The position numbers were made by a program, and so were the translations under genes. This document shows, one piece after another, positions 27,014-55,433 of a DNA stretch of 64,000 nucleotides. The notes under the pieces are model-generated. The model was not told the DNA's origin. It ran no database searches and saw nothing but the letters and a program-made list of their open reading frames with translations. The stretch's first letter is position 1; every line of letters starts with the position of its first letter. Source of the DNA: Candidatus Falkowbacteria bacterium RIFOXYA2_FULL_38_12 (GTDB lineage: Bacteria > Patescibacteriota > Patescibacteriia > XYB2-FULL-38-15); NCBI GenBank assembly GCA_001778095.1, contig MFGA01000020.1:75805-139804 (forward strand), given 5' to 3'.

Positions 27014-27125
27014 CTGTGTCATCCTGACCCCGCCTTTTGCGGGGGAAGGATCTCTCGCGAATGCGAGCTAGAAAAGGATATTGCGGACATTCGTCCGAGA
27101 TCCTTCACTGCGTTCAGGATGACGG
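27014..27125. repeat. GC-rich multi-stem (cloverleaf-like) structured element
   Basis: Outer stem GTCATCCTGA/TCAGGATGAC encloses CCCCGC-cttttg-CGGGG and a second stem AAGGATCTC/GAGATCCTT, which itself contains CTCGC-gaat-GCGAG and CGGAC-attc-GTCCG. Confidence 0.5.
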
Positions 27126-27612: not shown

Positions 27613-27687
27613 CTGTCATTCCCGCGAAGGCGGGAATCCACTCGCAATTATTTTAAAGTAGATTCCCGCCTTCGCGGGAATGACAAA
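27613..27687. repeat. twin GC hairpins with identical stems and complementary loops
   Basis: GTCATTCCCGC-gaag-GCGGGAATC and its exact reverse complement GATTCCCGC-cttc-GCGGGAATGAC, 21 nt apart. Overlaps the first annotated codons of tgt. Confidence 0.6.
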
Positions 27688-30459: not shown

Positions 30460-33203
30460 ACTGCGCCGCGTGCGCTGGAAGCGGAAAAATCGGAGGAGGG
30501 AAGTGCCTTTCCTGCCATGGTTTGGGTATGGGAATTTATAGAGACAAAAAATTTCTATATTGGAATAAAATAATTACAAATCAGGAGTTGGAAAAGAAAA
30601 AAGCGGAGAAATTCTTAAAATTATTTTTAAATGGGATATCTTTTGTTTTTAGCGTTCTGGCTACTCTACTTTTACTTTGGCAAATAGTGGAAAACAGTTT
30701 TTTTGGCCAGATTTTTACCTTATCTTTTTGGATTTCGGGCAGTCCGGTCGTAACCTTATTTTTGGTTTCTTTATTGGTTGACGCTTATTTAATTTATCGT
30801 TTTTCCGAAGAAATTGCCCAAAAGGCGAAGATTGAGAAAAAAGAATATCAAGACAAGGAGGGAGAGAAAAAAGAGGAGGTAATGGAAACTCTTCCGTCCG
30901 ACTGGGTTTCCGTGCGCGATTTATCAAGCAAAATAAAAATAAATGTTGCCGATACTTTTACTTTTGATGCCCAAAAAGCCGTAGAGGATGCTTTTTTTGT
31001 GGCCACAAAATTTAATCATGGTAAAATTTTGCCATTGCATCTTTTTATAGCTCTTCTTTTTTCCAAAAAGGCGGCAATAGTTTTTGGAAGATTGGGAGTG
31101 AATTTAAAAGAAATGCAGGAAAAACTAGGCCGACAAATATCTTCTGTGGGTGAACTTCTTGCGGAAGGTCAAGAGTCGGTTTTTAGCGAAGAATTAATCC
31201 AATTATTTTTTGATGGATATTTTGAAGCCTACAATTCAAGGCGAGAACAGATTGATATTGCCGAACTTTTGCTCGTTGTTTCCAGATCTAATCCAATCAT
31301 TCAAGAATTGCTTTATGAATATGAAGTTGATCTTGATAAGTTGAAAAACGTAGTGGAGTGGCTTAGGATTTCCGAATTTTTAAGAAAAAGATGGCAAAAA
31401 ACAAGAACGCTGGCGAGATTAAAGCCGGGGGGCACAATGTCGCGGGCAATGACAGCTGTGGCCACGCCATATTTGGATCGTTTCAGTCAGGATTATACAA
31501 TGATGGCAAAATACGGATATTTCGCGCCGTGTCTCGGCAGGGAAAAAGAAATTGAGGAAATTTTTAGAATTATAGAAGGCGGTCGGCAGAGCGTTATTTT
31601 AATCGGTAATCCGGGAATAGGAAAATCGGCAATCCTCGAAGGTATTGCCCAAAGGATGGTGGAAGAAGATGTGCCGAAAATTTTGCAAGACAAAAGATTA
31701 GTAAATTTAAATATCGGACAATTGGTTGCCGGAGCGACGGCTTCTGAAGTTCAAAAAAGATTGTTGATGATTTGCGATGAAATAGCCCGCGCGGGAAATA
31801 TCATTCTTTGCATTCAGGATATTGAAGGAATGATCGGAATTACTTCCGGCGATAAAGAGAGTATTGATTTATCAAGAGTTTTGGCTGATGAATTGTCGCA
31901 AGGTTATTTTTTTGCGATTGCTTCGGCAAGATCCGGAGTGTATGGTCAATACATTGAAAACTCTTCGTTGGGGGCGGTTTTGCAAAAGGTGACAATAGAA
32001 GAGCCGGATACTAATGGAGCGATCCAAATTTTGGAAGGTAAGGCCGGAGCGATTGAATATCAAAACAAAGTGGTTTTTTCTTATGACGCTATTTCCAAGG
32101 CGGTGATTTTGTCCGGTCGTTATTTGCACGACAGATATTTACCGGAAAAAGCCATAGAAATAATGAGAGAAGTAGCACATTATGCGGCAGGGAAACGCGG
32201 AGTGGGGACAATCGTTGTCGGGGAAGATGTGGCTGAAGTAATCGCGCAAAAAACCAAAATACCAGTAACCGCGGTAAATGAAGTTGAATCGGAAAAATTA
32301 TTGCGCCTGGAAGAAGAAATGCATAAGCGAGTGATTGGTCAAGAAGAAGCGATTAAAATGATTGCCGCGGCGCTTCGTCGGGCGAGAGCGGAAATTCGCG
32401 AGGCTAAGCGACCGATTGCCAACTTTTTATTTTTGGGACCGACCGGTGTAGGAAAAACCGAAACGGCAAAAACAGTTTCCGAGGTTTATTTTGGCGATGA
32501 GAGAAATATGATTCGGCTTGATATGTCAGAATATCAAGATCAAGCCAGTATTTATCGCTTGATCGGCGCGCCGGCAGGAAATTCAGCCGGACTTTTGACC
32601 GAGGCGGTGCGTAAAAATCCTTTTACTTTGGTTTTGCTGGATGAAATAGAAAAATCCCATCCGGATATTTTGAATGTTTTTTTGCAAGTTATGGATGACG
32701 GTCGCCTGACCGATAACTTGGGTCGAACGGTTGATTTTACTAATGTTATTTTAATTGCCACTTCCAATGCCGGTTCTCCGGCGATTCAAGACGGAATAAA
32801 GCAAGGATTGACTATTGAAGCGGTCAAAGAGCAACTTATAAATACGGAATTAAAGCCATATTTCAGACCGGAGTTTTTAAATCGTTTTGACGGGATTGTT
32901 GTTTACCGTCCGCTTACCAGTCCGGAAATAGAACAAATTGCCGGCTTGATGCTTGCCAAAATCGGGAAACAGTTGGAGAATAAGCGGGGGATTGTTCTTG
33001 AGGTTACGGGCGAAGCTGTGCGCGAACTAGCCGCGGCTGGTTTTGATCCTGCTTTTGGAGCAAGACCATTACGTCGAGTGATTCAGGAAAAAGTTGAGGA
33101 TGGCTTGACTAATCTTATTTTGACGAAGAAAATTGAAAGAAGAGATAAAGTTATTTTGGAAGTTGGGGGAAATTTTAGAATAGAAAAGGGGAGAGTGTTA
33201 TAA
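30432..33203 (+). CDS. membrane-anchored ClpC/ClpB-like AAA+ ATPase with N-terminal DnaJ-type zinc-finger motifs
   Basis: Two AAA+ modules (Walker A GNPGIGKS and GPTGVGKT, sensor and arginine-finger regions). Clp_N-like repeats. N-terminus carries CAACAGSG and CLSCHGLG (CxxCxGxG) followed by two TM helices. Confidence 0.8.
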   Translation: MLKMPNNFLNCAACAGSGKIGGGKCLSCHGLGMGIYRDKKFLYWNKIITNQELEKKKAEKFLKLFLNGISFVFSVLATLLLLWQIVENSFFGQIFTLSFWISGSPVVTLFLVSLLVDAYLIYRFSEEIAQKAKIEKKEYQDKEGEKKEEVMETLPSDWVSVRDLSSKIKINVADTFTFDAQKAVEDAFFVATKFNHGKILPLHLFIALLFSKKAAIVFGRLGVNLKEMQEKLGRQISSVGELLAEGQESVFSEELIQLFFDGYFEAYNSRREQIDIAELLLVVSRSNPIIQELLYEYEVDLDKLKNVVEWLRISEFLRKRWQKTRTLARLKPGGTMSRAMTAVATPYLDRFSQDYTMMAKYGYFAPCLGREKEIEEIFRIIEGGRQSVILIGNPGIGKSAILEGIAQRMVEEDVPKILQDKRLVNLNIGQLVAGATASEVQKRLLMICDEIARAGNIILCIQDIEGMIGITSGDKESIDLSRVLADELSQGYFFAIASARSGVYGQYIENSSLGAVLQKVTIEEPDTNGAIQILEGKAGAIEYQNKVVFSYDAISKAVILSGRYLHDRYLPEKAIEIMREVAHYAAGKRGVGTIVVGEDVAEVIAQKTKIPVTAVNEVESEKLLRLEEEMHKRVIGQEEAIKMIAAALRRARAEIREAKRPIANFLFLGPTGVGKTETAKTVSEVYFGDERNMIRLDMSEYQDQASIYRLIGAPAGNSAGLLTEAVRKNPFTLVLLDEIEKSHPDILNVFLQVMDDGRLTDNLGRTVDFTNVILIATSNAGSPAIQDGIKQGLTIEAVKEQLINTELKPYFRPEFLNRFDGIVVYRPLTSPEIEQIAGLMLAKIGKQLENKRGIVLEVTGEAVRELAAAGFDPAFGARPLRRVIQEKVEDGLTNLILTKKIERRDKVILEVGGNFRIEKGRVL

Positions 33204-33270
33204 GTTAAAGGTTAAAAGTGAAAAATGAAAAGTTGCAACTTCTCACTTTTAACTTTTCATTTTTCACTTT
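33203..33270. repeat. AAAGTGAAAA/GTTAAAAGT palindromic element
   Basis: gttaaaggttaaaagtgaaaaatgaaaagtt + gcaa + cttctcacttttaacttttcatttttcacttt (near-perfect hairpin). Confidence 0.75.
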
Positions 33271-33272
33271 AT

Positions 33273-34989: not shown

Positions 34990-35080
34990 TGTTTCCCCTC
35001 CCTTGATGGGAGGGGCTAGGGGAGGGTGGTCGTATAAATTCACCCCCACCTAACCTCCCCCATCGAGGGGGAGGAAATTT
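34990..35080. repeat. paired GC-rich hairpin element (CCCCTCCC-loop-GGGAGGGG family)
   Basis: CCCCTCCC-ttgat-GGGAGGGG, a middle GGTGG/CCACC stem, then CCTCCCCC-atcga-GGGGGAGG. Confidence 0.65.
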
Positions 35081-35092
35081 GGTGATAATTTT

Positions 35093-35533
35093 ATGGAAAA
35101 ATTTTATTCAATTGTTTTTGGCGTCATTTTAGTGACAGCAGTAGTCATGAAAGTCGGCCAATATTCCAATGAGCATGGCAGGGTTATTGTCGGTGAAGAT
35201 AAGATAAAGGTTGAAATTGTCAGTCAATTGACATCAAGGCAGAAAATGTTGGATTGGCAGGAAGATATGGACAAAGACAATGGGCTTCTCTTTGTTTTGG
35301 ATAAGCCGTCCGAGACTACAGCTTGGTTAAACGAGCTACGATTGCCGGCTGATATCATTTGGCTCCAGAATGGGCAAATAATTGATCTTGCCCCAAATCT
35401 ACCGGCAATTGGTAGTGATTTGCTTGATGGCTACAAAACCCCAAAACCGGCCACTCATATTTTAGAAATCGGTTCCGGTTTTGTGGATAAGTACGACCTA
35501 AAAATCGGGGATAGGCTGGAGATTGAGATATAG
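35093..35533 (+). CDS. DUF192 (COG1430) family protein
   Basis: N-terminal TM helix. GLLFVLDKP...AWLNELRLPADIIWL...ATHILEI...IGDRLEI fits the DUF192 pattern. Confidence 0.5.
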   Translation: MEKFYSIVFGVILVTAVVMKVGQYSNEHGRVIVGEDKIKVEIVSQLTSRQKMLDWQEDMDKDNGLLFVLDKPSETTAWLNELRLPADIIWLQNGQIIDLAPNLPAIGSDLLDGYKTPKPATHILEIGSGFVDKYDLKIGDRLEIEI

Positions 35534-35619
35534 AAACGGCTTATTTTAGATTATAATTGACAAAAAATGAGATAAATGTTTAAATTGTTGAATATTTTTA
35601 TATTACTAAAATTATCATT

Positions 35620-35931
35620 ATGTTCGCTATAATTAAAACCGGAGGAAAGCAATACAAGGTAAAACAAGGGGAAACCTTGAAAATAGAAAAAATCGTCGGA
35701 AATGTCGGCGATAAGGTTGATTTTGACAAGGTTCTTTTGCTAGCCGACGAGGAAGGAAAAGACGTTAAAATTGGAAAACCAATGTTGTTGGGAGCTAAAG
35801 TTTCCGCCGAGATATTGGAGCAGGGGAGAGATAAAAAAGTGAATGTCATTAAATATAAACCAAAGGTTCGCTATAGAAGAAAAGCCGGACACAGACAGAT
35901 GTTTACGAAAGTAAAAGTGGTTGGTATCTAG
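35620..35931 (+). CDS. rplU: 50S ribosomal protein L21
   Basis: MFAIIKTGGKQYKVKQGETLKIEKI, the canonical L21 start. 103 aa. Confidence 0.85.
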   Translation: MFAIIKTGGKQYKVKQGETLKIEKIVGNVGDKVDFDKVLLLADEEGKDVKIGKPMLLGAKVSAEILEQGRDKKVNVIKYKPKVRYRRKAGHRQMFTKVKVVGI

Positions 35932-35948
35932 TAGTTGGTATAAATTAA

Positions 35949-35978
35949 AATGCTCATCCGAAAGGATGGGCATTTTTT
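35949..35978 (+). terminator. rho-independent terminator after rplU
   Basis: ATGCTCATCC-gaaa-GGATGGGCAT followed by TTTTTT. Confidence 0.75.
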
Positions 35979-36036
35979 AAATTTTAAAATCTAAATGAAT
36001 CACGAATCATGATTCTTGATTCGTGATTCAGAACAA

Positions 36037-36648
36037 TCATAATTCCTTTCTTCCTTTCAGCGCATCGGAAACAGTCACTTCGTCGGCATATTCAAGGTCG
36101 GCTCCGATAGGTAATCCCCGCGCCAGGCGGGTTATTTTTATTACGGAATTTTTATCAAATGATTTTATAAGCTTGGTGAGATAAAGGATTGTTGTTTCTC
36201 CTTCTAAATCCGGATTTAGAGCAAGAACTATTTCTTTAATATTATTATTCTGGACTCTATAAATTAGCTCTTTAATTTTTAATTGATCGGGCGTGATGCC
36301 GTGCAGTGGGTCGAGAACGCCGCCCAAAACGTGGTATGCGCCAAGATACTCTCCCGTGTTTTCAATGACCGGCAGGTCTTGATGTTCCGCGACAACGCAG
36401 ATGACGGCCTGATCGCGGTTTTTGTCGGAGCAAATGGCACAAGGATTTTTTTCAGAAAAATTTTGGCAGACGTGGCAAGTGGCGATGGAACTGCCTAGCA
36501 TCTCTATGGCCTTTGCGAATTTTATATTATCATCTTGCTTTTGTCTTAATAAATAAAAAACAAAGCGCAGGGCTGTTTTTGGCCCAACGCCAGGGAGACG
36601 GGAGAAGGAGTCGGCTAAGTTTTGGATAACTAAAGGGAACCGTGGCAT
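36037..36648 (-). CDS. recR: recombination protein RecR
   Basis: C4 zinc finger CHVCQNFSEKNPCAICSD. Toprim domain. Confidence 0.9.
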   Translation of the reverse strand: MPRFPLVIQNLADSFSRLPGVGPKTALRFVFYLLRQKQDDNIKFAKAIEMLGSSIATCHVCQNFSEKNPCAICSDKNRDQAVICVVAEHQDLPVIENTGEYLGAYHVLGGVLDPLHGITPDQLKIKELIYRVQNNNIKEIVLALNPDLEGETTILYLTKLIKSFDKNSVIKITRLARGLPIGADLEYADEVTVSDALKGRKEL

Positions 36649-38588: not shown

Positions 38589-38665
38589 GGACGATTAGCT
38601 CAGTTGGTTAGAGCGTTCGATTCACATTCGAAAGGTCGGAGGTTCGAATCCTCCATCGTCCACCA
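38589..38665 (+). tRNA. tRNA-Val (anticodon CAC)
   Basis: Cloverleaf: acceptor GGACGAT/ATCGTCC, D-arm GCTC..GAGC, anticodon stem TTCGA/TCGAA with loop TTCACAT, T-arm GGAGG-TTCGAAT-CCTCC, encoded CCA. Confidence 0.8.
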
Positions 38666-38668: not shown

Positions 38669-38775
38669 GAAGTTAAAAGTGAGAAGTGAAAAATTAAAAG
38701 TTGTTGATGATCTGCCCTTAACTTTAAATTTTGAACTGTAACTTTTCACTTTGCATTTTTAACTTTTAATTTATT
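38669..38775. repeat. AAAGTGAAAA/GTTAAAAGT palindromic element
   Basis: agttaaaagtgagaagtgaaaaattaaaagtt ... acttttcactttgcatttttaacttttaattt. Lies between the tRNA and the lepB ATG. Confidence 0.7.
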
Positions 38776-39457: not shown

Positions 39458-40870
39458 ATGCCTAAAATAAAATTGAAAATGAAAAATAAAAAACCAGCCA
39501 AGGAAGATATTCAAAAAATGAAAAAAGAAAAAGCGGCTAAAGTCCAAAGCAAAGTTGAACAACCGATCAAAGAAAAAAAGATTAAAGCGCCGAGAAGCTT
39601 TCAAACCTTAAAAGGGATGAAAGATATTTTGGCGTCTGAAAACAAGTATTGGGAATACGTGAAGACCAAAGCTAAAAATTTTGCTTTAAATTACGGATAT
39701 GAGTCAATAGAAACGCCAATTCTTGAAGAAACGGCTCTTTTTAATCGAGCAGTGGGTAATGAAACCGATATCGTCTCCAAGGAAATGTTTTCTTTCGTTG
39801 ATCAAGGAGAGGAAAATGTTTGCTTGAGACCGGAGGCAACCGCTTCTGTCGTAAGATCTTATGTCCAGCACGGAATGTTGAATCTTCCCCAGCCGGTCAA
39901 GTTCTTTTATTTCGGACCAATGTTCAGATACGATAGACCGCAAGCGGGCAGATTAAGGATGTTTCATCAGATCGGTCTTGAGGCGATCGGTGAAGAAAGC
40001 CCCATTATAGACGCGGAAATCATTTTTTTTGTTTATAATTTCTTAAAAGATTTGGGATTAAAAACGGTGATAGAAATAAACAGTATCGGTTGTCCGAAAT
40101 GTCGCGAAGCCTATAAAACAAAGTTGATTAATTATTACCGCGATCGTAAGTCCGGTCTTTGTGAAGATTGTCAGAAAAGATTGGTGAAAAATCCTTTAAG
40201 GCTTCTTGATTGCAAGGAAGAAGGATGTCAGGCCTATAAAGAAGACGCGCCGCAAATTGTTGATTGGCTTTGCGATGAATGTAAAAATCATTTTGTGGGA
40301 GTTTTGGAATATCTTGATGAATCAGGAGTTATTTATAATCTCAATCCTCGTTTGGTGAGAGGTCTTGATTATTACACAAAAACAGTTTTTGAATTTTTTC
40401 CGGATAATGCGGATGGAGTTGAAAAAAGACAAGATGCTTTGGGTGGTGGCGGACGTTACGATGGCTTGGTTGAATATTTGGGTGGTCGGCCGACGCCAGC
40501 TTGCGGGGTAGCTTTGGGGCTGGAGCGAATTATTTTAAAGTTGAAAGAAAATAATATAGAAATACCGGCGCTTCGAAAACCGGATATATTTTTGGCGCAA
40601 TTGGGAGAACAAGCAAGGAAAAAAAGTTTTATCTTGATTGAAGAATTAAGAAAGTCGGGATTTTATGTTGTACACAGTTGTTCGAAAAAAGGATTGAAGA
40701 AACAGTTGGAGATGGCTAATAAGGATGGCGTTAAATATACTTTAATCTTAGGACAAAAGGAAGTTATTGACGGAACAATTATTGTTCGCGAAATGGAAGG
40801 TGGAGCGCAAGAAATAGTTGATTTCAATAAAACAGTTCAAGAAATGAAAAAGAAAATAATTTTACAGTAA
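39458..40870 (+). CDS. hisS: histidyl-tRNA synthetase (with Lys-rich N-terminal extension and Cys-rich insertion)
   Basis: Class II motifs (fRPE..A.VVRSY, motif 3 GGGGRYDGL). Anticodon-binding C-terminal domain. Inserted CPKC...CEDC...C..C region. Confidence 0.85.
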   Translation: MPKIKLKMKNKKPAKEDIQKMKKEKAAKVQSKVEQPIKEKKIKAPRSFQTLKGMKDILASENKYWEYVKTKAKNFALNYGYESIETPILEETALFNRAVGNETDIVSKEMFSFVDQGEENVCLRPEATASVVRSYVQHGMLNLPQPVKFFYFGPMFRYDRPQAGRLRMFHQIGLEAIGEESPIIDAEIIFFVYNFLKDLGLKTVIEINSIGCPKCREAYKTKLINYYRDRKSGLCEDCQKRLVKNPLRLLDCKEEGCQAYKEDAPQIVDWLCDECKNHFVGVLEYLDESGVIYNLNPRLVRGLDYYTKTVFEFFPDNADGVEKRQDALGGGGRYDGLVEYLGGRPTPACGVALGLERIILKLKENNIEIPALRKPDIFLAQLGEQARKKSFILIEELRKSGFYVVHSCSKKGLKKQLEMANKDGVKYTLILGQKEVIDGTIIVREMEGGAQEIVDFNKTVQEMKKKIILQ

Positions 40871-40905
40871 CAAGCTAATAAAAAATATAATATATAGACC
40901 CCCCG

Positions 40906-41064
40906 AACAATAATCCTTTCTACTGCAACTTGTAATTTTGTCTACAAATTTTCTAAAGCTCCTCCGCTTATCCTGCGGATAAACATCGTCGCTTTATCCC
41001 CGCCATGGGCGGGGCGCTCAAAATTACTGCGTTTCGTAACAAAAGATTATTATTCAGTGGGTCT
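40906..41064 (+). repeat. ~160-nt structured repeat, copy 2
   Basis: Shares ctttctactgcaact.gtaatttt ... ccgcttatcc...ggataaacatc ... aaaattactgcgtttcgtaac with copies 1 and 3. Has its own terminal inverted repeat. Confidence 0.8.
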
Positions 41065-41084
41065 AAAGAAAGAGGGGTGAAATC

Positions 41085-41336
41085 ATGGGACAAGAAGTAA
41101 AAAGAAAAAAAGGAGAAACCTTTGAAAGCATGATGAGGCGTTTTTCAAGACGCGTTCAGCAAAGCGGAAAATTATTGCAAGCCAAAAAAATAAGATTTTA
41201 TGAACCGGAAAAGAGTCGTAATCTTCAACGTGTATCAGCTTTGAGAAGAGAAGATATAAAAAAGAAAAGGGAATATCTGAAGAAAGTCGGAAAATTAAAA
41301 GACGAAGATACAAAAAATAAATATACGCGAAGATGA
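41085..41336 (+). CDS. rpsU: 30S ribosomal protein S21
   Basis: VKRKKGETFESMMRRFSRRVQQSGKL...RFYEPEKSRNL matches the S21 pattern. Confidence 0.8.
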   Translation: MGQEVKRKKGETFESMMRRFSRRVQQSGKLLQAKKIRFYEPEKSRNLQRVSALRREDIKKKREYLKKVGKLKDEDTKNKYTRR

Positions 41337-41848
41337 GCATAAAAGAGAAAATAGAAAAAGATTTTATTGAGGCGCGCAAAGAAAAAAATGAAACCATGGT
41401 CTCCGTCCTTGGTATGTTAAAGGCGGCCATTTTGAATGGTGAAATAGCGGCAAGACCCGCCCGCCAAGCAAGCCAACCCCATGCTTGCATTAGCGGGCAA
41501 GATGCTGGCGTTGCGGGCGGGCCGAAAGAATTTGGAGAAGATGATATTCTGAAAGTTATAGGAAGTGAAGTTAAAAAACACAAAGATTCAATCGGAGAAT
41601 ATACCAAGGGCGGCCGAGAAGATTTGGCTTTGAAAGAAAAACAGGAAATGGAAATTTTAATGAAATATCTTCCGGCTCAAATGACAGAGGAAGAATTAAA
41701 AAAAATCGTAGAAGATAAAATAAAAGACTTGGACGCGAAGGGAGCGGGAGATTTCGGAAAAGTCATGGGCGCGGTGGTGAAAATAGTGGCCGGGCGCGCC
41801 GGTGGAGACACTATGAGTAAAATAGTAAAGGAAATTCTCGGTGCTTGA
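41333..41848 (+). CDS. yqeY: GatB/YqeY domain protein (with internal GC-rich palindromic insertion)
   Basis: N- and C-terminal YqeY-like regions (KEKIEKDFIEARK, GAGDFGKVMGAVVKIVAGRAGGD). Conserved rpsU-yqeY adjacency. Confidence 0.75.
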   Translation: MSIKEKIEKDFIEARKEKNETMVSVLGMLKAAILNGEIAARPARQASQPHACISGQDAGVAGGPKEFGEDDILKVIGSEVKKHKDSIGEYTKGGREDLALKEKQEMEILMKYLPAQMTEEELKKIVEDKIKDLDAKGAGDFGKVMGAVVKIVAGRAGGDTMSKIVKEILGA

Positions 41849-41974: not shown

Positions 41975-42068
41975 ATTTTAAAGTTAAAAGTGCAAAGTAA
42001 AAAATTAAAAGTTACAATTCAAAGTTAAAAGTTGTTAGCAGTTAATTTTAAACTTTTCACCTTTAGGC
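41975..42068. repeat. AAAGTGAAAA/GTTAAAAGT element
   Basis: aaagttaaaagtgcaaagtaaaaaattaaaagttacaattcaaagttaaaagtt ... aaacttttcaccttt, ending 2 nt before the ATG. Confidence 0.65.
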
Positions 42069-42069: not shown

Positions 42070-43980
42070 ATGTTTAAAAAAAAGACAGCCTTAAAGTTTT
42101 TATTAGCCCTAGTTTTACTTGTGGGAGGTTTTTTGTTTGTCCAAAATGTTTTCGCTCAAGATATTGCCGGCATGGACATTGTGAACGAAAATATCGCTTT
42201 GTCCGCCGATGACCCAAGAATTATCGCCGCAAGGATTATTAGAATAGCTTTGGGATTTTTAGGAATAATAGCCGTCTGCATAGTCTTGTATGGAGGTTTT
42301 TTATGGATGACTTCAGCCGGCAATGAAGAAACTATTGGTAAGGCAAAAAAAGTTTTGATCAATGGATTGATCGGTTTGATCATAATTTTAATGGCTTTTG
42401 GCATTACCCAATTTGTTTTAAATTCTCTGCTTGGCAGGGTCGGGGGAGGAGCCGGCGGGGGAGGCGGGTCACCATTAATCGGGCGATATAGCGGAGCCTT
42501 GGGTAATGGAATTATTGAGAGTCATTATCCGCCACGCGGAGGGACGGGAATTCCACGTAATACAAAAATTATCGTGACATTCAAGGAAAAAATGTTACTT
42601 GAGTCTTTGGTTAACAATTATAATGATAACGGAACGCCGGACAATATTGCGGATGATGTGGTTACTAAAAATGACAATGGCACGCCCGGCAATCCAGCAG
42701 ATGATTGGATGGAAATCAATAGCGAGAATGTTAGAATCTTTAAATCAAGCGAAGGAGAACTTGGCACGGAGCGAGTCCCGAACTATTTATCATCAAGCCA
42801 GGTAAGGGTTTCCTTTACGGCTGATCTGAAAAATTTTGTTTTTGATCCGATTCCACTGCTTGGTAGTCCGACGGAAAATATTTGGTATACAACAGCCTTA
42901 AAGCCGGGCATAGAAAAATCAAACGGCGACAATGCTTTTGCCGGAGCTTTCCGTGACGGATATGCTTGGGATTTTGAAGTGAGCACGATTATTGACGTAA
43001 CTCCGCCACAAGTAGTCAGCGTTATTCCAAGAAAAGATTCTGTAAATCCGCGCAATATAAAAGTGCAAATAAATTTTAATGAAGCAATGGATCCGACAAC
43101 TGTTTCCGGAAGTACTTTTGGCGAGGAGGCTTTAAGATTTAATAATGTTTTAACCACTGATGCTCTTGATCGCGAGGTTGCCGGAACGTGGAGTATTGGT
43201 AATCAATATAAAACAATAGAATTTGTAACTAATGACAAGTGTGGGACAAATTCTTGTGGAGGCGATGTTTATTGTCTTCCGGGAGATGAAACAATCAGCG
43301 TTCTGGCCATTGCCGCAAGATTAGGGAGTAGTCCGCCGGAGGCCGAGATGCCTTATGACGGTATTGTTGATGTTTGCGGTAATTCTTTGGATGGAAATAG
43401 CAACGGCCGAGCCGAAGGACAGTCTCTGGAAGGGAGAAGCGCTATTGGTGGAGATAATTATTCATGGCTTTTTAAAACAAACGACACTATTGATTTAGTT
43501 CCGCCAACAATCAGCGCGGTTACTCCAATGCCGGAAACTGAAAGCGTGGCTTTCGCCGTTCCGGTAGAATTAACCTTTTCAAAATTAATGAGTATTACGA
43601 GTTTTACAACCAGCAATATTTCCTTTCAGGATAATCAACGCGATGAATGCGCGGTTTGGTTTTTTCTGGATGGCGACAATTTACAAGCGGACGGAGCTCC
43701 GGTTAGGGGATCTGATGATATCGCCATACGCACAAAAGCGAGAGTCAGTCATGAAAACTTATTGCCGACAGGTGGAGTTTGTTCTGACGATAGACCGGTA
43801 GAAGGACCGTTAGCAATGGATGGCGAGGGTTCATTGGTTTATTATTTTCCAGTTGCCAATTCGGATGTTCAAGATTTGTTTCAAAATTGTTTTTATAGAC
43901 CCATCGGACCGGCCGATGGTCAGACTTGCGTTGTTGGAAGAGATGGAAATTTGCCAGCTGACTGCGAGCCATGGAGATAA
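42070..43980 (+). CDS. secreted surface protein with VirB2/TrbC-pilin-like N-terminal anchor and Big_5-type Ig-like domains
   Basis: Signal peptide, then two hydrophobic helices separated by a short charged loop, then a poly-Gly linker. Repeated D.TPP.V....P........I...F.E.MDP.TV Ig-like modules. Confidence 0.6.
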   Translation: MFKKKTALKFLLALVLLVGGFLFVQNVFAQDIAGMDIVNENIALSADDPRIIAARIIRIALGFLGIIAVCIVLYGGFLWMTSAGNEETIGKAKKVLINGLIGLIIILMAFGITQFVLNSLLGRVGGGAGGGGGSPLIGRYSGALGNGIIESHYPPRGGTGIPRNTKIIVTFKEKMLLESLVNNYNDNGTPDNIADDVVTKNDNGTPGNPADDWMEINSENVRIFKSSEGELGTERVPNYLSSSQVRVSFTADLKNFVFDPIPLLGSPTENIWYTTALKPGIEKSNGDNAFAGAFRDGYAWDFEVSTIIDVTPPQVVSVIPRKDSVNPRNIKVQINFNEAMDPTTVSGSTFGEEALRFNNVLTTDALDREVAGTWSIGNQYKTIEFVTNDKCGTNSCGGDVYCLPGDETISVLAIAARLGSSPPEAEMPYDGIVDVCGNSLDGNSNGRAEGQSLEGRSAIGGDNYSWLFKTNDTIDLVPPTISAVTPMPETESVAFAVPVELTFSKLMSITSFTTSNISFQDNQRDECAVWFFLDGDNLQADGAPVRGSDDIAIRTKARVSHENLLPTGGVCSDDRPVEGPLAMDGEGSLVYYFPVANSDVQDLFQNCFYRPIGPADGQTCVVGRDGNLPADCEPWR

Positions 43981-44075
43981 AGTGAAAGGTTAAAAGTGAA
44001 AGATGAAAAATTAACGAGTTTTCAACTTTCAACTTTTAACTGTAACTTTACACTTTTCATTTTTCACTTTTAATT
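43981..44075. repeat. AAAGTGAAAA/GTTAAAAGT palindromic element
   Basis: agtgaaaggttaaaagtgaaagatgaaaaatt ... aacttttaactgtaactttacacttttcatttttcacttttaattt. Confidence 0.7.
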
Positions 44076-44079
44076 TACG

Positions 44080-47000
44080 TTGATGCTAAGCAAAAAGACA
44101 GCTCTAAAATTTACACTATCCCTCATCGTACTTATGGGAAGTCTTTTGTTTGTCCAAACGGTTTTTGCGCAAGATTTTGGGACTGATGTTGTCGGCGAAA
44201 ATATTGCTCTAGTGGATGCCGGTGATCCCAGAGTTGTCGCCGCAAGGATTATCAGAATAGCTTTGGGATTTTTGGGAATTATTGCTGTTTGCATAGTTTT
44301 GTATGGAGGCTTTTTATGGATGACTTCAGCCGGCAACGAAGAGACTCTTGGTAAGGCAAAAAAGGTTTTAACCAGCGGTTTGATCGGACTTATCATTATT
44401 TTAATGGCTTTTGGTATTACTCAATTTGTTTTGAGTAGATTGACAGAGGCAACAGGGGTTGATGGCGGAGGGGGTGGCGGAGGCGGCGGAGGGGGTGGCG
44501 GAGGCTTGCCTTCTGACGCTTTTTTAGTAAGAAGCATTCAGCCAAATGGCGCTATTCCCATTCGTAATGTCATTGTCAGAGTTCTTTTTAATAAAAACGT
44601 AAATGCAGATAGTCTAAGAGTGGCGGGAAATTTTGTAGTGCGTCGGGTTTCCGACAACACGCCAGTAGAAGGAATAATAAATCTAAATGGTAATCTTGCG
44701 GAATTTGTTCCCAATGCCGATTGTCCCGAACCAAATGCTGATAGAAAATGTTTTGATAGTGATACTGAATTTAGAGTGGAATTAGCTACTGGGATAAGAA
44801 GCGAGACTGGAAAGAGTTTGATGTGTGGAGGATTGGCTCCGTCTTGTCGTGGAACTTTCACAACTGGAAATTTGGTTGATGTTACCGGCCCCGAGGTTGA
44901 TGTTACTTTTCCTGATGATGGTCAGCCGGTGAGTGCCGACGCGATTATAAGTATTGAAGCGCATGCGATTGACGATGCGGGAATTTCTTATTTGGATTAT
45001 TTTGTTAATAACAACCTTTTGGGTCGGGACGCTCCGGAGGGGCCGACTGTTCGAGATTATTTTTCGGCTACCGATTGGGATACAACCGGAATAGCCTCGG
45101 GGACAAAATATAAATTAAAGGCCACAGCTTTTGATATTGATTCAAACAATACAAACTCAAACGGCGTAGGGGTGATTGTTAGAGCTGCGCATTGTTTTAA
45201 TGCGTTTAAAGATCTTGATGAGATCCAAGTTGATTGTGGCGGAGTTGATTGCGGTTTATGTGACGGCGGAGCTTGTGTTAATGATGATGAGTGTCGTAGT
45301 GGAATTTGTTTAAACGGAATTTGTCGGAGCTTGCCGGTTATCGCTAGGGTTGCTCCCAGCGATGGCGCAGTAGGAAATTTTATAACAATATTTGGCGAGC
45401 ATTTTGGCAATGTTCACGGTTCGGTTTATTTTCAGGATCACATCGAAGGCAATTTGCCGAGAGGTTGTGTAGTTGGAGACGTTTGGCAGGATAGACAAAT
45501 TATCGTTGAGGTCCCGGCAGGAGCATTGGACGGGCCGATTTCCGTTGTTATTCCTCCACCGGACGGAGCGCTAGCTTCAGACTATACGGACAGGACGAAT
45601 GATGAACGAGGTCCGTTGTTGCCTGATTTTGACGTGAATGAAATTGAACGTCCGGGAATTTGCGCAATTAATCCGAAAGAAGGAGAACCAAAAGCTGAAG
45701 TGAGGGTTTTGGGAACTCATTTTGGTGACCAGCAGGGAGACAGTTTGATTAATTTTGGAGGGACAAGAGCCGAAAGAATTTTGGATTGGGGAGAATCAAG
45801 TATTAGGGCAACAGTTCCCTTGATAGCCCCGGCGGTTGTTCCCGTTCAAGTAGTAAAAGATGAAGAAAATAGCAATCCTATTAATTTTACCGTTCTTCAA
45901 TCTGCCGCGACTCCAAAAATTTTAAGTTTCTCTCCGACAAAAGGGCCGGAAGGGGAATATATAACCATTTTAGGTTCAAGTTTCGGCGACACTCCCGGTA
46001 AAGTTGATTTTGTTGCGCCGGACGGAACAATTTATTTGGCGGCAACTGATTTTCCGGAGGTCTGCGGAGCTAATTGGTGGAAAGATGACGCAGTGATTAT
46101 TAAAATACCGAAAGAAGCAAGGATTATTCTTCCCGGGCCAAAATATACTTTAAAATTAACGGCAAATAGCGGCCTTGTTGATGATACTTCGGATTTAACA
46201 CCGGCAACTCTCGAAATTATTGGCGGGGCGCCAAAACCGGGAATTTGTCGTATTTTTCCGGACAACGGACCGGCTGGTCTTGAGGTTGCAATTGATGGGG
46301 AAAGATTGGGGTTGAGAGGAATTTTAAATTTTTGGAGAAATAAGGTTGCTCTAACAAATTCGTGGAAAGTGGATCAGGTTGTTGGAGTCGTGCCAGTCGG
46401 ATCAGAAACCGGGCCAATCAATGTTTCGGTCGGCGATAATTTAAGCAATAATGTAAATTTTAACGTTCGCGATTGTCGCGACGCGAGAACGCCATGCGGA
46501 GAAGGAGAAGAATGTTGTCGGGATGGATCATGTCGAGCGGATGGAGAATGCGCGGAAGCGCCGGGTAGCGGACATTATTTTTGGCGTTTTTCCACCGGTG
46601 AGCTACCAATAAATCCCAGAGTGGTGGAATATTGCGGTCCGGCTGATGAACCAAGAAGATTAAACCCGTCACCTTCACCTTGGAATAAAAGAGAAGGTGG
46701 AAACAATGTTTGCATTAATGCCAGGATCACGGCCAGATTTAATGTAAAAATGAACAATGAATCATTGACAACACATGGGAATATTGTTGTGGAAGAATGT
46801 GCCGGTCCTGACGCGGAAAATCCTTGTCTTGAAAAAAGAGTAGTTGAGGGAGAAATTAATCCTTTAGTTGTAAATGATGCTCTTTTACCAAGAGGAATTG
46901 GATCAGATTCATTTGAGTTTGTTTTGCCAGCGGGCATTCTATTTGAACAAAATAAAGTTTATCAAGTTACTTTAAAAGGTGGTTCATTTGAAGATCCCGG

Positions 47001-50000
47001 ACTTGCAAGTGTTGCCGGGTTGCTTTTAGACGGAGATAAAGACGGAGAAGAGGGTGGAGATTATATTTTTGAATTTAAAACAAGGAATACTGATGAGTTG
47101 TGCGAAATAGGTTCAATCGGAATCATGCCTCCAATCGCAACACTGACTGAACAATGGATAGAAGATGAAGAAATTGTCGGATCAGAATTGGAGTATACCG
47201 GTTTGTGCTATGCAGAGGGGGATATATGTTTAACTCTAAATTGTAGAAACTATGATTGGAGATGGAAATCATCTGACGATCCGTTAAATCCAAAGGTTTC
47301 ATTGCTGGAAGTGGAAGATGATGAAGGCGAAGTGATTGAAGAGAAGGCACTTGTCAGGGCAGTAGCGGAGACAGATATAAACCCCGCGACTGGTCTAAGT
47401 CAACCAGTAATAATAACTGGCGCGATCCCAGTTGAAAGAAAGTCTGGAGAGGGAGATTTAACTATTAGTTTTACAGATCCAAAAGTAATTGAAAAATGGC
47501 CTGATTGTCGAGAGGCCTGCAAGAATTCGGAAGTAGGCGTTAAATTTAATACATGGATGGATGAAGAAATTGCCGGCGATCCTCAAAATATAAAGTTATA
47601 TATCTGGCGTTGCGGTAATAGTGTTATTGATCATGGCGAAGATTGTGATGACGGAAATATTGTTTCCGGCGATGGTTGCAGTAGTAGTTGTCTAAATGAG
47701 GGAACAAAACTTTGTCTCGAATTTGATCCGGCCGTCAGAGAAGTATCGGTCGAGGATTCTTGTTGCGGAAATGGACGGCGCGATCCGGGCGAAGATTGCG
47801 ATGGTAATCCTTTTCCGGCGAATTGCCGAGTAGATGGATTGGCTGACAATTGTCTTAATGAAGGAACGGCTGTGATCGGCGACGGTGGAAGTTGTGGTAA
47901 TAGTATAGTTGAAGAAGGTGAAGATTGCGATCCGCCGGATCTTGCTTTGCCACCGGGAAGTCGTGGGTGTAGCGTGGAATGTTTGAATCAAGGGACTTCC
48001 GGACTATTTCCGGCGCCCGGAGGTATTGTCGGAGTTTTACCTCGATATTCTTCAGTAAGCCTAAGCGAAGGGAAATGGGAACACAAACTGAATTTTGATT
48101 TTCCTGTCGGTTTTTCTCTTCTTCCTAATACTTGGTATAGGGCGGTAGTTTCGGGAGCTCAAAAAAGCGTTAGCGGAGTTGCTCTCACGGAATTGAATTA
48201 TGACGATATACCTGACGAAAGACATTCTTTAGATTCATATTCTTGGGCGTTTAGAACCAAAAGCGATGATTCTTTATGCGCTGTTGATAAAATTGAAGTG
48301 AGCCCGAGGGAAGCGCGGGTTAGATTTATTGGAGCAAAAGTTGATTTTAGGTCAATGCCTTTTGGCGCGCCGGATGAATGTAGCCCTAATGGCCAGAAAT
48401 TGAGAGCGATGAGCTATCCTTGGGTTTGGAATTCAACAGTAGAGGAAGTGGGAACTCTTCCGGCTCCTCGTTCCGATAGATTCCCCGGTTGTGGCAATGG
48501 TGTTGTGGAATTTGGTGAAGATTGCGACGATGGAAATATACTTCCGGGTGATGGTTGCGCCGGGCCGGGAGATAACGCCTGCTTAAATGAGGGTGAGAGC
48601 GCGTGCGCCTTTGGAGAAGGTATGTGTATAGTAGATAAACGTTGTATTTGGAATGAAGCTGATGGAGGAAGATGTATTAAAAAAACTATCTGCGGAAATA
48701 GAGCAGTAGAGATAGGCGAAGATTGCGATGATGGAGATAGAGATTCGGGAGACGGATGCAATAATAAATGTTTGAATGAGGGGTCAGTCGCCGGAGGATC
48801 TGTCTGTGGAGATATGAAGATTGGTATTGGTGAAGACTGCGATGACGGAAATACTCGATCGGGAGATGGATGCAGTAATCTTTGTTTGAATGAAGGGACT
48901 ATTCTTGACAGAAGAATTGATCCTCTGCAAACAGTAACGGCAAAGGGGCTAAGAGTTGATCATGCTCGCGAGGACACTACGGCAATAAGCGCTGAAACAG
49001 ATGGAAAAAAAGGTGAGGGCAATTTTACTTTAGCTTGCAGTTATAATCTACCGGACAATCCTTGCCCGGAAGACGACGAAAGGGGTGATATTTATGGAAT
49101 TGGTAATAATTCTTGCTGTTATCCAAAGCCAATTATTGAAACCTGTAATCCGTCAGGCGCGGCTATTTGTTCCAATAAACCGGAAGGGGAAGCGGTTTGT
49201 CGCAATTCTTTAATCTCAATAACTTTTGATAAAGAAATGGATCCGGCCTCACTGGAAGAAAATATTATTGTCGCTGGCAATTATAATGTTTGCCCGGAAG
49301 GAACGATTGACGTTGGTAATGGCGATATCAGACTTCGTGAATTTATAAATTGGTGCGCGGTAACGGGAGGAATTACCGTTAGTCAAATTGTTCCGGAAGA
49401 AGGCGAAAAAAAGACAAGAGTTGATTTTAATTTATCCAAACTTTTGGATCCGAGCATAAAATATAAAGTTATTGTTCGCGGGAATAATTTATTGACTCGA
49501 GATAGAGTAGAGGGAGCAAGGAGTATTAACGGAGTGGAGCTGGGAGAGACTAATTTTACTTTTAGAGAAGGGGAGGCGAGTTATCAAAGCAGGAGCTGGA
49601 CTTTTTGGACAAACGATCAAATTTGCGCCCTGTCTTCAGTTAAAATAAATCCCGAAAGTCATCTTTTTACCAGCAGTTTGGATCCGGAAAATCGGGCTGA
49701 TTTTATAGCAACCGCCTTGGATGCAAGAAATAATCCTATTTCGTCAATTCCCGGATCTTATTCTTGGAGATGGGATTGGACTTCAAGTTATATTGACATA
49801 GCCGCTCTTTCTCTTTGCGCTGATCCAAACGGATGTAGCACAAGAACCGTGACGGCGCAAAATCAAAACGGAGAATCATTAATTTCCGCCAAAGCGACGA
49901 TAACAGCAGATGAAGAAGTCCCGGGCGCAAGAGGTCAAAGCAAGTTTGGCATTTCCAATGTCGCTGTTTTTCTTTGCGAAAATCCTTGGCCAACAGCGGC

Positions 50001-53000
50001 AACAATAAGAGAGGACGGAGGATATCTTGATCGTAATTATAATTTCAAATTTTACTATTGCCGAGACAAAGGGGAATTTTTGCCTGACGATGATCTACCC
50101 TGTTTTCCCTCGGCGGAAGTGGGCGGAGCGATTGCCGTAAGGGATACCGAGAGAATCGGCGTATTAAGAGAAGATGGTTTGTTGAGAGAATATTTATTTA
50201 CGTTTCCGGGAACATTTTATTGTAGTGTTTCACAAACTTTATGCGATCCTGCCGCCCTTCCTGACGCTCTGGGTTTCTGTCCTGCCGGAACCGGAGATTG
50301 CCGACCGGCCCCGGATGCCATTGGTATTAGAATTTACGAAAACGTTAATCATCTAACTCCGACCGAATGGTATGGAAAGCAAGGATTAGCTGTGGGAAGT
50401 CCGGAGACAATTAATATTGACGGCTATGAAGCAATACGAGATGGTCGGACAGTCTATATTTCGGCGGCCAATGACACGATGGGTCCGGACACTCTTTATA
50501 CAAATATTTATTTGGTCTCTTATAACGACGGAGCTAATTCGGATACAATAAATATCTATAATCAGATAATACAAAATTTAAAATTTAATACTAATTTGAG
50601 AAATGCGGATCTGCGGGCATGTCTTTACAGGGCTTGCAGTAATAATGCCAGCAAAAGTTGCAATATGGATGCAGACTGTCGCGCGGAGCCTGACGTTACT
50701 TCAACTTGTTTGCCTTTATCTTATTGCACTAAAGATATGGATTGTCCGCCGGCGGTTCCGGTTGCGGGAACAATTAACGAATGTCAAGCGCCAAAAGATA
50801 AATTAACCAGAGACATGAGGAGGATTATTGACCTTAATAATCTAAAAAGAGTAATAGATTCTTATAAAACTGTTCATGGAAGCTATCCAAAACTGGAAGC
50901 GGGAACTTATATCAGATCATTGGTCTCCAGCGTTTGGGGTTCTTGGATCGGGGCGTTGGGCAAAGACTTAGGCGCATCATTACCCGTTGATCCGATCAAC
51001 AAAATTGTTAATTGCGAGGGGGCGGGTTTTGATAAGGAAACATGTTGGAATCTAGAATCAAAAACGTATCAATGTCCGGCCGGTTCGCATGTTTATCAAT
51101 ATAAAGTGAACGGAGACGGGACATATAAATTAAAGAGTGATTTTGAGTATAGGGCAAACGATCGCCTCGTTGATCTAAAAACGCTATGGGTAGGAAATTT
51201 ATCTAATGTGTTTGAAATACAAGGATCTTGCGATGGCGCTCCCATAAGAAGCACCGGCGTTTGCGGAGATGGAAATATAGACGGTCCCGAGGAATGCGAG
51301 CCGAGAGCTAATCCCCCGCGAGACAGGGCGTGTACACTTGAGATTGATGGAGAAGAAGTGGCTGGCAGACAAAGAGAAGAGTGTAACCCAGCTGACTGCA
51401 CTTGGCGCGAGCTAGGTGGCTGTTCGGTTCTCTGTGGGGATGGCATTCGCCAAGTGGGTGAAGAATGTGACGAAGGGCCTCTGGGCGGACGAATAGCTGG
51501 TGGAGGAATGTCTCCGGAAAATCAGTATTTTTGTACTAGAGAATGTGAAATGATGGGAGGTTATTGTGGTGATGGAGGAGAACCACAGGTAGCTTATGGA
51601 GAAAGATGCGATAATGGAGTTTCTTGCACGTTAAGGTTGCCTTGTGCAAGTGTGGATGGATGTGTCTGTGGATCTTGTATAGTTCCTAGGGGAAAGAAAA
51701 GCTGTGGAAATGGATCTTACGGATTGAGCGTTAGTGGAGAACCTTGGTGCAAAACAGATTGTTCGGGCTTCGGTCCATATTGCGGAGATGAGGTTGTAAA
51801 TGGAGCTGAACAATGTGATGGAGATTCTATTACTTCAAAAGGAATTTGTGTTCCAGAAGGAATACCAGAACTAAACGATGTGGATACGGTTCTTGGAAGT
51901 TATACCTCATGTAACAACAATGAAGATTGTTCGGACGGTACTTGTGTTATTTGTGATAATTCTAGAGAAGGTTATTCTCAATCAAGAACGAAAAACTGTG
52001 GAGAGTTGGGGGTACCAGGGTTAGCTCTTCTATGTGACTGGAATAGATGGGGCGCTTGCGAGACGGCAGGTACTTGCGGAAATGGGACAAAAGAAGGGGA
52101 CGAGGAATGTGATGATGGAAATGAAAATAATAATGATGGTTGTATTATCACCTTGGAAAATTCTCCATCGGGTCCTGATAATTGCAAACTAGCTCGTTGT
52201 GGAGATGGATTTACTAAGATTGGTGCAGAAGCCTGTGACGTCGGCGTAGGCAATGGCAGGATTTGCAGGGCAAACTATGGTGAAAATTGTAATTATTGCG
52301 ATGTTAATTGCGCTATAAAAGTTATTACCGGACCTCGTTGCGGAGATGGAATAATAAATGGAAGAGAGACATGCGATGATCGAGCGGGAACTAGTTTGTT
52401 ATATAAAATAATTGAGGAACAAAAATATTTTGCTGATAATCGTGGCGATAGTTTAGGAGTAGTTGTTCCCGTGAGTATGGATTCGGCCTGCTCAATAGAC
52501 AGCGCTCTTCCGGGCATAGATGGTTCCTGCCCGGGGCAACCGCCAACAGGAGCACTGAAATTTAATCGGGCGGTTTGTTCAGCGGATTGCGCTTCAACTT
52601 GTCCCCCGGCTTATAAAATACAAACATTAACCTTTGGTCCGGAAGGACGAAGTTCAATTGAATTAGGAAGTAACGAGGAGGTCTCAGTTAATCTTCCCGC
52701 TTGTCGTGTTTTGGGTGACATTAAAGTTGATGTTGATTTGAGTAATGTTACTCAAACTCCGTTGAATGTGGTTTTTGTGACGGATAGATCGGGGAGTATG
52801 GGGTGGGGAACAACATCAAGTTCTGGACCAAATCTTTCTTGCAGTGAAGACAGAACGAGGATGGGTTGTGCTAGAGATGCGCTTACGGAAGCAATAAATT
52901 TATTATTTGATAGTTATGAAAATATTCGCATTGGCTTGGTAAGTTATGGTAATAATGTCCCGGTTGGTGCATGGCATGACTTGCTGGGTTTTTTAGGGAA

Positions 53001-53658: not shown

Positions 53659-53685
53659 GAGAATATACATATAGAGACTAAAATT

Positions 53686-54495: not shown

Positions 54496-54570
54496 ACTAA
54501 GAGGAAAAAGGCAACTTTAAACTTTTAATTGTAACTTTTCACTTCTCATTTTTAACCTTTAACTTAATAC
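54496..54570. repeat. AAAGTGAAAA/GTTAAAAGT element (reverse-arm words only)
   Basis: ggcaactttaaacttttaattgtaacttttcacttctcatttttaacctttaactt, ending 8 nt before the ATG. Confidence 0.6.
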
Positions 54571-55311: not shown

Positions 55312-55390
55312 CCTCCCCTTTGACAGGGGAGGCGAGGAGGGGATGATTATTCAAGTCACCCTCCCCTAACCCCTCCCGTCAAGGGAGGGG
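55312..55390. repeat. paired GC-rich hairpin element (CCCCTCCC-loop-GGGAGGGG family)
   Basis: CCTCCCC-tttgaca-GGGGAGG and CCCCTCCC-gtcaa-GGGAGGGG. Same family as 34990..35080. Confidence 0.65.
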
Positions 55391-55433
55391 AACACTGCTA
55401 ATCTGCTTATAGACTTATTAGCTAAATTTAAAT

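Follow-up and report, generated by a model that had tools for sequence, protein, structure and literature searches.

The ERIC/IRU sequences of enterobacteria and the bcr1 element of the Bacillus cereus group are imperfect palindromes of about 125-155 bp that behave like mobile elements and in which the substitutions suggest selection for a single-strand fold; a TTTAT duplication has been reported for bcr1, and we know of no report of exchangeable or invertible centres in any of them. The miniature inverted-repeat transposable elements of bacteria (MITEs) are small (below about 500 bp), non-coding and AT-rich, have inverted ends and a stable stem-loop, occur in many intergenic copies without a transposase of their own, and show presence/absence polymorphism between strains (PMC10969869). 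REPINs are hairpin doublets with compensatory changes that persist as intergenic populations in organisms that have Y1 transposases, the REP-associated tyrosine transposases or RAYTs (PMC3116915, PMC3337134), and the Correia elements of Neisseria are 100-200 bp long, have inverted ends, often lie just upstream of genes and show strain-specific insertions (PMC2649163). Here we describe a family that has all these MITE, REPIN and Correia traits and that resembles ERIC/IRU and bcr1 in mobility and in the selection on a single-strand fold, the latter two being unrelated to it in sequence and host. It was found in a stretch of 64,000 nucleotides of contig MFGA01000020.1 of Candidatus Falkowbacteria bacterium RIFOXYA2_FULL_38_12 (hereafter the window), which holds three copies. 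The copy under study, copy 2, lies between hisS and rpsU and is probably a non-autonomous, MITE-like mobile foldback element (about 160-172 bp, encoding no protein, from Parcubacteria-group genomes and mobilised in trans) that represents a recent, lineage-specific insertion. Its mobile and non-autonomous nature is well supported.

For every one of the three window copies the corresponding site is empty in a close relative, and this is the decisive evidence for mobility. The hisS-rpsU spacer measures 214 nt in the window and 48, 72 and 49 nt in L043, L041 and L044 (histidyl-tRNA synthetase 96%, 89% and 81% identical to that of the window, respectively), none of which has the element, and the flanks of copy 2 align on both sides (...AAAAAATATAATATA-element-AAGAAAGAGGGGTGA in the window, ...AAAAAATATAATATAATTTATAGAAAGAGAGGTGA in L044). 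Upstream of ftsA, copy 3 (57361-57521, minus strand) has entered a promoter-like site (TTGTCA-17-TATAAT), at the 3' edge of its -10 box. The site of this copy is empty in L045, which comes from the same sample as the window's home contig and has a 96% identical FtsA (TTGTCA-17 nt-TATAAT-AGTAAAATT...), and L046 (88% identical) has, in the ftsA leader, a copy that was inserted independently some 16 nt farther downstream and whose terminal arms are almost those of copy 2. Copy 1 (6861-7026, forward on the plus strand), between a SIMPL/DUF541 gene and gpmI, is missing from L047 and L048 (GpmI 93% identical), where both genes overlap as ATGA; the first bases of the copy supply the TAG stop of the SIMPL/DUF541 gene and the upstream protein is therefore unchanged. 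Sites that are filled in a relative and empty in the window were found as well. L040, which is syntenic with window positions 35093-36648 (94-98% protein identity), carries a copy 25 nt upstream of rplU that is missing from the rplU leader of the window (35534-35619, plus strand) and from L041, and a copy of the divergent type E in L045 (3526-3686) is missing from the junction before ybeY in the window (56486-56489, plus strand). Altogether there are five filled/empty site pairs in addition to the independent insertion in L046, and the element has moved repeatedly since strains that are 93-96% identical in protein diverged. Such recent mobility was not raised by the sequence-only reading, made without database searches, that first described the repeat. 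Insertion into an existing host palindrome or terminator was ruled out, as the empty sites have no TAGAC...GTCTA palindrome.

The three window copies clearly belong to one family, as the sequence-only reading had proposed. A profile built from them and searched against the window gave exactly three matches, with E-values far beyond chance (1e-51, 3e-50 and 1e-49), and nothing else below E = 0.5. Copy 1 is inverted with respect to copies 2 and 3, and the mean column identity of the three is 81%; the window, with a G+C content of 38.8%, thereby contains three copies per 64 kb, or about one per 20 kb. The proteins flanking the copies place the hosts in the Patescibacteria/Parcubacteria group; for the proteins of the window the best named relatives are Candidatus Falkowbacteria (71-76% identity). 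Large collections were scanned with one exact two-block pattern each. The scan of species-representative genomes gave six loci, four of them genuine (three from one unclassified metagenome-assembled genome and one from Candidatus Staskawiczbacteria); L006 (Acutalibacteraceae) and L008 were chance matches within apparent coding sequence. The scan of the Joint Genome Institute (JGI) metagenomes gave 29 loci, and a profile search over all retrieved loci yielded 44 matches, representing 35 distinct sequences and about 30 loci beyond the three of the window. Rfam gave no match that reached the gathering score, and relaxing the threshold to E < 10 added only microRNA precursors, matched as generic hairpins (25.6 bits, with 72 needed). 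The two-block pattern had no match in viral contigs, nor did blastn find any in phage and plasmid collections; an 18-nt core pattern matched twice in viral contigs, both times by chance and inside coding sequence. Literature searches on MITEs or RNA motifs in these phyla yielded nothing relevant, and the family appears to be undescribed, as far as literature and database comparison reached.

The members of the family, 161-195 bp long, share the layout 5'-TAGAC-(10 variable nt)-AATAATCTTTCGTTACGAAACGCAGTAATTTT-centre-AAAATTACnAGTTGCAGTAGAAAG(G)ATTATT-(10 variable nt)-GTCTA-3' on the forward strand, which we define as the better-folding strand of each copy. From the ends inward, the conserved (T)AGAC...GTCT(A) termini are followed by a 10-bp stem that is free in sequence yet kept paired, by two almost invariant and mutually asymmetric sub-terminal arms, and by an exchangeable centre with tandem G·A loops and an apical hairpin. 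All copies extend the terminal inverted repeat TAGAC...GTCTA into a terminal stem of some 25 bp. The arms are common to all copies and the centres sort into types A to D and the divergent type E. Unlike in MITEs, about 130 of roughly 165 nt are strongly conserved, asymmetric internal loops included, the only free segment is the paired 10 bp just inside the termini, wobble pairing is strand-specific, and no parent insertion sequence of the element is known.

Copy 2 occupies 40895-41065 (171 nt, TAGACC...GGGTCTA, reading TAGACCCCCC...CAGTGGGTCTA; profile match E = 1e-51, running to 41066), with the minus strand as its forward strand, antisense to both hisS (39458-40870, plus strand, PF13393/PF03129) and rpsU (encoding ribosomal protein S21; 41085-41336, plus strand, PF01165). 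The sequence-only reading was right about a structured repeat between these genes, just upstream of rpsU, and the arms that it quoted are present as written; of its boundaries (40906-41064) the end is correct within 1 nt and the start is 11 nt late, since the quoted 5' arm (AGACCCC...) begins at 40896. Read on the minus strand, the 5' half of the terminal stem (TAGACCCACTGAATAATAATC, 41045-41065), with the variable 10-bp segment of the family, pairs with the 3' half (GATTATTGTTCGGGGGGTCTA, 40895-40915). The 5' sub-terminal arm (41020-41045, minus strand, family consensus CTTTCGTTACGAAACGCAGTAATTTT) and the 3' sub-terminal arm (40916-40939, minus strand, family consensus AAAATTACnAGTTGCAGTAGAAAG) each have one mismatch to a consensus that is near-invariant across 25 copies. 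The centre is of type A (40956-40993, minus strand). By the consensus fold of the type-A copies it has a single C-G pair enclosed by two tandem G·A/A·G internal loops, and above these the apical hairpin TTATCC/GGATAA (40968-40982, minus strand), of which the stem co-varies (AU to CG, CG to UA). Only two open reading frames cross copy 2, of 31 and 41 amino acids and on opposite strands, which leaves it without coding capacity. The alignment of the three window copies further revealed a nested GC-rich mini-hairpin (CCCCGCCatgGGCGGGG, 40998-41014, unstranded), which among these copies is found only in copy 2 and takes the place of one strand of the middle stem; similar nested GC hairpins are present in the L046 copy and in the L025 copy (type E, 11609-11780). 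Small CCCGC...GCGGG hairpins occur six times in the window, where 0.22 would be expected by chance (e.g. at 21495-21516, 27029-27043, 27621-27678, 36117-36131 and 40999-41013, the last one being nested in copy 2). The nested hairpins suggest a tiny palindrome, distinct from the element, that either enters the copies or grows inside them.

Every copy is predicted to fold into one long rod. The RNA folding energies are -64.9 kcal/mol on the plus and -52.4 kcal/mol on the minus strand for copy 1, -75.0 kcal/mol on the minus (-75.2, z = -8.9, in a separate computation) and -49.9 kcal/mol on the plus strand (likewise -50.7, z = -5.2) for copy 2, and -69.0 kcal/mol on the minus and -53.5 kcal/mol on the plus strand for copy 3. 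In the family as a whole the forward strand folds better in 32 of 33 copies, with a mean advantage of 12.5 kcal/mol. Of the 21 positions at which the terminal arms of copy 2 face each other, 18 are Watson-Crick pairs on either strand. The remaining three are two C·A mismatches and a C·T on the plus strand, and two G·U pairs (from C·A) and one A·G on the minus strand. In the variable stem of the family, Watson-Crick pairs account for 212 cells, G·U for 22, A·C for 5 and other combinations for 11 (22 G·U against 5 A·C, binomial p = 0.0015). The imperfect pairing of the arms had been attributed to decay or to tolerance of G-U pairs in RNA; wobble explains it better than decay (C·A becoming G·U, invariant U·G pairs, the ratio of 22:5), be it not on the mRNA-sense strand that the sequence-only reading had assumed: in copy 2 the wobble-tolerant strand is the minus strand.

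The arms of 25 distinct copies were aligned on a structure supplied by hand and compared with 500 shuffles. Standard pairs are present in 94.5% of the cells and in 33-55% after sliding the 3' partners by 1-3 columns, and in a run of ten adjacent pairs every position occurs in three to five pair types. Eighteen pairs (108 cells) are changed on both sides and none of the 500 shuffles reaches any of five measures, although these statistics overstate significance and are not to be taken as probabilities because the copies are phylogenetically related. The consensus fold of ten type-A copies gave the same rod, in which 19 pairs are changed on both sides, the apical hairpin co-varies and four U·G pairs are invariant or nearly so; by inspection, types B and D have G-C in place of the single C-G pair that the two tandem G·A/A·G loops enclose. 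Pairing and wobble are kept on one strand regardless of which way the host gene is transcribed, and the selected form would therefore be a single-stranded hairpin of that strand, which may be a single-stranded DNA intermediate of transposition or an RNA. The fold data do not separate the two, as the strand asymmetry is also seen with DNA energy parameters (-35.0 versus -27.3 kcal/mol for copy 2).

The genomic context of the copies bears on the same question. They occupy AT-rich gene boundaries, often 1-30 nt from a start or stop codon, and in several cases a -10-like box could be read just 5' of the copy: copy 2 begins 3 nt after a TATAAT, copy 3 at the final base of a TATAAT that belongs to TTGTCA-17-TATAAT (57333-57361), the L040 copy 8 nt after TTGACT-17-TAAATA and the L046 copy 16 nt after a TATAAT. 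Relative to the flanking genes the orientation is random (12 forward and 13 reverse in leaders, 11 forward and 17 reverse in trailers, on the basis of crude gene calls), and no protein family recurs beside the copies. One could imagine that the element is primarily a functional structured RNA, either a dispersed small-RNA gene or a cis-acting module (RNase III site, stabiliser or attenuator), and that its mobility is secondary. The strand-specific wobble, the abundant co-variation and the tandem G·A loops with the C-G to G-C swap between centre types would all agree with this, and the copies in 5' leaders behind -10-like boxes would be transcribed. Nevertheless, we consider it rather unlikely. 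With random orientation half of the copies would yield the poorer-folding strand, no promoter-like site is present in or near copy 2 and none is conserved inside the element by eye, Rfam has no such family even at E < 10, and the asymmetry extends to DNA parameters. Moreover, presence differs at housekeeping loci between strains that are 93-96% identical, which indicates that no copy is locally needed.

The element also shows internal dynamics. L029 (1519-1682) and L039 (834-997) represent the same locus in two metagenomes, with flank and arm 68/71 and 70/70 identical, and the central 72 bp, bounded by AGTAATTTT/AAAATTACT, are exactly inverted between them (72/72 identical as reverse complement, 28/72 directly). 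An assembly artefact seems unlikely because the perfect flanking repeat is only 9 bp long. The centre of the element can thus flip in place. For Correia elements, inversion of the element has been reported (cited in PMC10969869). Stems and centres are combined in various ways: three type-C copies from unrelated loci have centres that are 100%, arms that are 96% and variable stems that are 28% identical, and stems of the CCCGCTGAAT lineage accompany centre A in copies 1 and 2, L019, L026 and L046, and centre B in L018. As one stem lineage is found with different centres and one centre with different stems, stems and centres have been shuffled between copies. The recurrence of CCCGCTGAAT-like stems at different loci and with different centres also rules out that the variable stem is randomised at each insertion; the stem is inherited on transposition and not regenerated each time. 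Two other origins or roles of this stem were rejected. It is not copied from the target, the longest shared word being on average 4.8 nt with a copy's own flanks and 4.9 nt with those of other copies, and as a guide it has no matches in the window other than the copies themselves. A separate case is L015 (893-1053). Its 5' half, with the adjoining flank, is that of the L039 locus, and its 3' half and flank are those of the L022 locus; either two copies have recombined, or the metagenome assembly is chimeric at the repeat.

At the three clean sites (copy 1, copy 3 and the type-E copy of L045) the filled site equals the empty site plus TAGAC...GTCTA plus 1 nt. An equivalent description is AGAC...GTCT within a 3-bp repeat (AAT/AAT for copies 1 and 3, AGT/AAT for L045), and the junction of the empty site reads AAT in all three comparisons. 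For copy 2, L040 and L046, length differences between the AT-rich spacers prevent a clean count, and older copies have no consistent flanking repeat or target word. A MITE of the IS630/Tc1-mariner or Correia type that duplicates TA would at first sight be attractive, as most copies start and end with TA and as size and terminal inverted repeats fit. However, a TA duplication was rejected because it requires 3 further nt at all three clean sites, and in type D the termini are GA...TC, which makes them part of the inverted repeat and not a direct repeat; we regard such an element as very unlikely. The family differs from Correia elements not only in this respect but also in the absence of a promoter-like site in or near copy 2 and in the phylum of the host, and its motifs and termini presumably do not resemble the Correia repeat; Correia elements are characterised by a 26-bp inverted repeat of Neisseria and an IHF site. 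An IS200/IS605-derived palindrome-associated element, which has a sub-terminal hairpin at either end and inserts beside a fixed tetra- or pentanucleotide without duplication, was rejected on the basis of the single continuous hairpin, the lack of a conserved flanking tetranucleotide and the gain of 1 nt at clean sites. In a TIGR-Tas array, units of about 36 nt follow one another in tandem beside a gene encoding a Nop-domain protein; a unit comprises two repeats and a pair of 9-nt spacers, and the spacers do not co-vary (PMC12045711). Such an array was ruled out too, as the copies are single and dispersed among housekeeping genes and as their variable segments are mutually complementary.

In the scenario that we favour, a non-autonomous element mobilised in trans, an enzyme that reads the conserved arms would move it. 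Two kinds of enzyme are candidates: a RAYT-like transposase of the Y1/HUH type, as found in the same population, or a DDE transposase, which would generate a 3-bp duplication. The co-occurring strain L045 has a Y1/HUH transposase gene (147-749, 200 amino acids, PF01797) with REP-associated tyrosine transposase NF047646 as the best model (72.8 bits, cut-off 80), which is missing from the corresponding position of the window (53658-53686). On its flanks the L045 gene has a palindrome of its own, GAGGACAGTCCTT-ATTC-AAGGACTGTCCTC (AAGGACWGTCCTT; locus 108-751), the core of which recurs in L025, L026 and L027 and is not found in the window. Given this recurrence, the L045 gene and the AAGGACWGTCCTT palindromes resemble a REP/RAYT-type system of these bacteria in its own right. 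L035 has another Y1 gene, which adjoins a different palindrome of 18 bp, GTGGAGGTTTCGCCTCTA. Y1/HUH enzymes act on single-stranded hairpins. This preference would fit the strand-specific constraint, and the link of the Y1 gene to the element is circumstantial. A specific form of the favoured scenario is a REPIN-like element moved as a single-stranded DNA hairpin by a RAYT. The strand-specific constraint and the RAYT-like gene of L045 speak for it, as do the long hairpin, the compensatory changes and the many intergenic copies, which are features of REPINs (PMC3116915). In other respects the family looks different. Its arms are not short palindromic REP units, it is longer, and the pattern is the reverse: in REPINs the ends are conserved REP sequences and the spacer varies, whereas here the ends are variable (28-46% identity) and the centre is conserved (94-100% within types B and C). 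In addition, the Y1 genes are flanked by the palindromes AAGGACWGTCCTT and GTGGAGGTTTCGCCTCTA and not by the element. IS200/IS605-type insertion leaves no target duplication, and the net gain of 1-3 nt at the clean sites is unlike it. A REPIN-like element is therefore a possibility that we do not favour, albeit a somewhat less unlikely one than a functional RNA.

Several observations weigh against the interpretation of the family as a non-autonomous element mobilised in trans, next to the inflated shuffle statistics mentioned above. Neither of the two available Y1 genes (L045 and L035) is flanked by the element, and no autonomous partner with the same ends was found in the approximately 370 kb of retrieved loci, in which we likewise found no solo arm and no larger element; an exact two-block pattern, used in one genome and one metagenome scan, misses diverged or larger relatives. 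Copy 2, L040 and L046 do not show a clean AAT repeat, which keeps the target duplication tentative, and a 3-bp duplication would point to a double-strand DDE mechanism that does not in itself explain the strand-specific wobble. Finally, the co-variation of the arms could partly reflect conversion between arms and not selection. A more speculative idea, to which we attach little weight, is that the family constitutes a self-contained single-strand replicator of Parcubacteria, in which a hairpin of defined strand would be the substrate of a Y1/HUH enzyme, of another enzyme or of reverse transcription, and the 72-bp centre would be a switchable module. In this reading the insertions, as copies land behind -10 boxes (rpsU, rplU, ftsA), could also tune the expression of core genes in these minimal genomes.

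The sequence-only reading had also suggested that the element might provide the rpsU promoter and had proposed to compare its 3' end with the rpsU start region. Copy 2 ends 19 nt upstream of the rpsU ATG and 6 nt upstream of the ribosome-binding site GAGGGGTGA (41072-41080, plus strand), and such proximity would be compatible with a role as promoter or as source of other expression signals; Correia elements of Neisseria are known to create promoters (PMC2649163, PMC10969869). The data argue otherwise. A consensus scan of positions 40600-41400 gave no sigma-70-like promoter and no terminator-like site on either strand, and the family inserts before genes in both orientations. A -10-like box, a TATAAT read from the sequence at 40886-40891 (plus strand, 3 nt 5' of copy 2), and the ribosome-binding site both lie outside the element, and both are kept in the element-free L043, L041 and L044 (spacers of 48-72 nt), with the box in TATAAT or TATTAT form, as in L044 and L043. 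In consequence, rpsU expression needs no element, and a promoter function is the least probable of the explanations considered here. In the fold of the mRNA-sense (plus) strand GAGGGGTGA is unpaired, without sequestration by the C-run of the 5' arm. If the TATAAT box is used, the insertion would add a hairpin of 171 nt to the rpsU leader and leave the ribosome-binding site free. Judged by the sequence, the insertion of copy 2 is incidental for rpsU.

Some other features of the window and of the related loci deserve mention. Close to the sites discussed above, cofactor-independent phosphoglycerate mutase paralogues are found in tandem at 7038-8585 and 8705-10279, an arrangement shared by L047 and L048, and an extra gene of about 190-230 codons lies between the DUF192 gene and rplU in L040 (1312-1878) and L041 (5517-6203) and is missing from the window (35534-35619); the one in L041 has no Pfam match on record. 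Downstream of rpsU, the window encodes paralogous secreted proteins of 636 (42070-43980) and 3192 (44080-53658) amino acids, with N-terminal regions that are 77-87% identical at the DNA level. The larger one contains internal Cys-rich CGNG...GEDCDDGN repeats and has a different C-terminus in L045, beside the Y1 gene. A second dispersed AT-rich repeat, AAGTTAAAAGTGAAAAATGAAAAGTT, is present in intergenic spacers (4476-4508, 25975-26007, 33202-33234, 38670-38702, 41981-42013 and 43980-44012) and as the reverse complement (8668-8702, 33238-33272, 38741-38775, 44045-44079 and 54534-54568), often in inverted pairs (e.g. the palindrome at 33202-33269). This second repeat might act as a motif associated with promoters or resembling a terminator, or it might be one more family of small repeats. 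A GC-rich palindrome at 27614-27685, with 29-nt arms that are 97% complementary around CCCGCGAAGGCGGG, stands out in this AT-rich genome, and the 36-nt G/C-rich sequence TTCCCCTCCCTTGATGGGAGGGGCTAGGGGAGGGTG occurs twice, in opposite orientation and 20 kb apart (34993-35028 and 55357-55392). The only Rfam and ARAGORN matches in the window are a ribosomal protein L10 leader (20341-20473, RF00557, 47 bits with a gathering score of 44) and tRNA-Val(CAC) (38589-38665).

The genomes of Parcubacteria and related bacteria are very small and densely packed, and mobile DNA is usually described as scarce in them. Here the non-coding element reaches about one copy per 20 kb and enters the leaders of genes for ribosomal proteins and cell division. 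For annotation, the element accounts for unusually long spacers and calls for caution before a hairpin such as that of copy 2 is named a riboswitch or leader of rpsU. The family offers a ready marker for strain-level dynamics in uncultured populations and a clean case for how a hairpin-shaped element spreads without a visible transposase.

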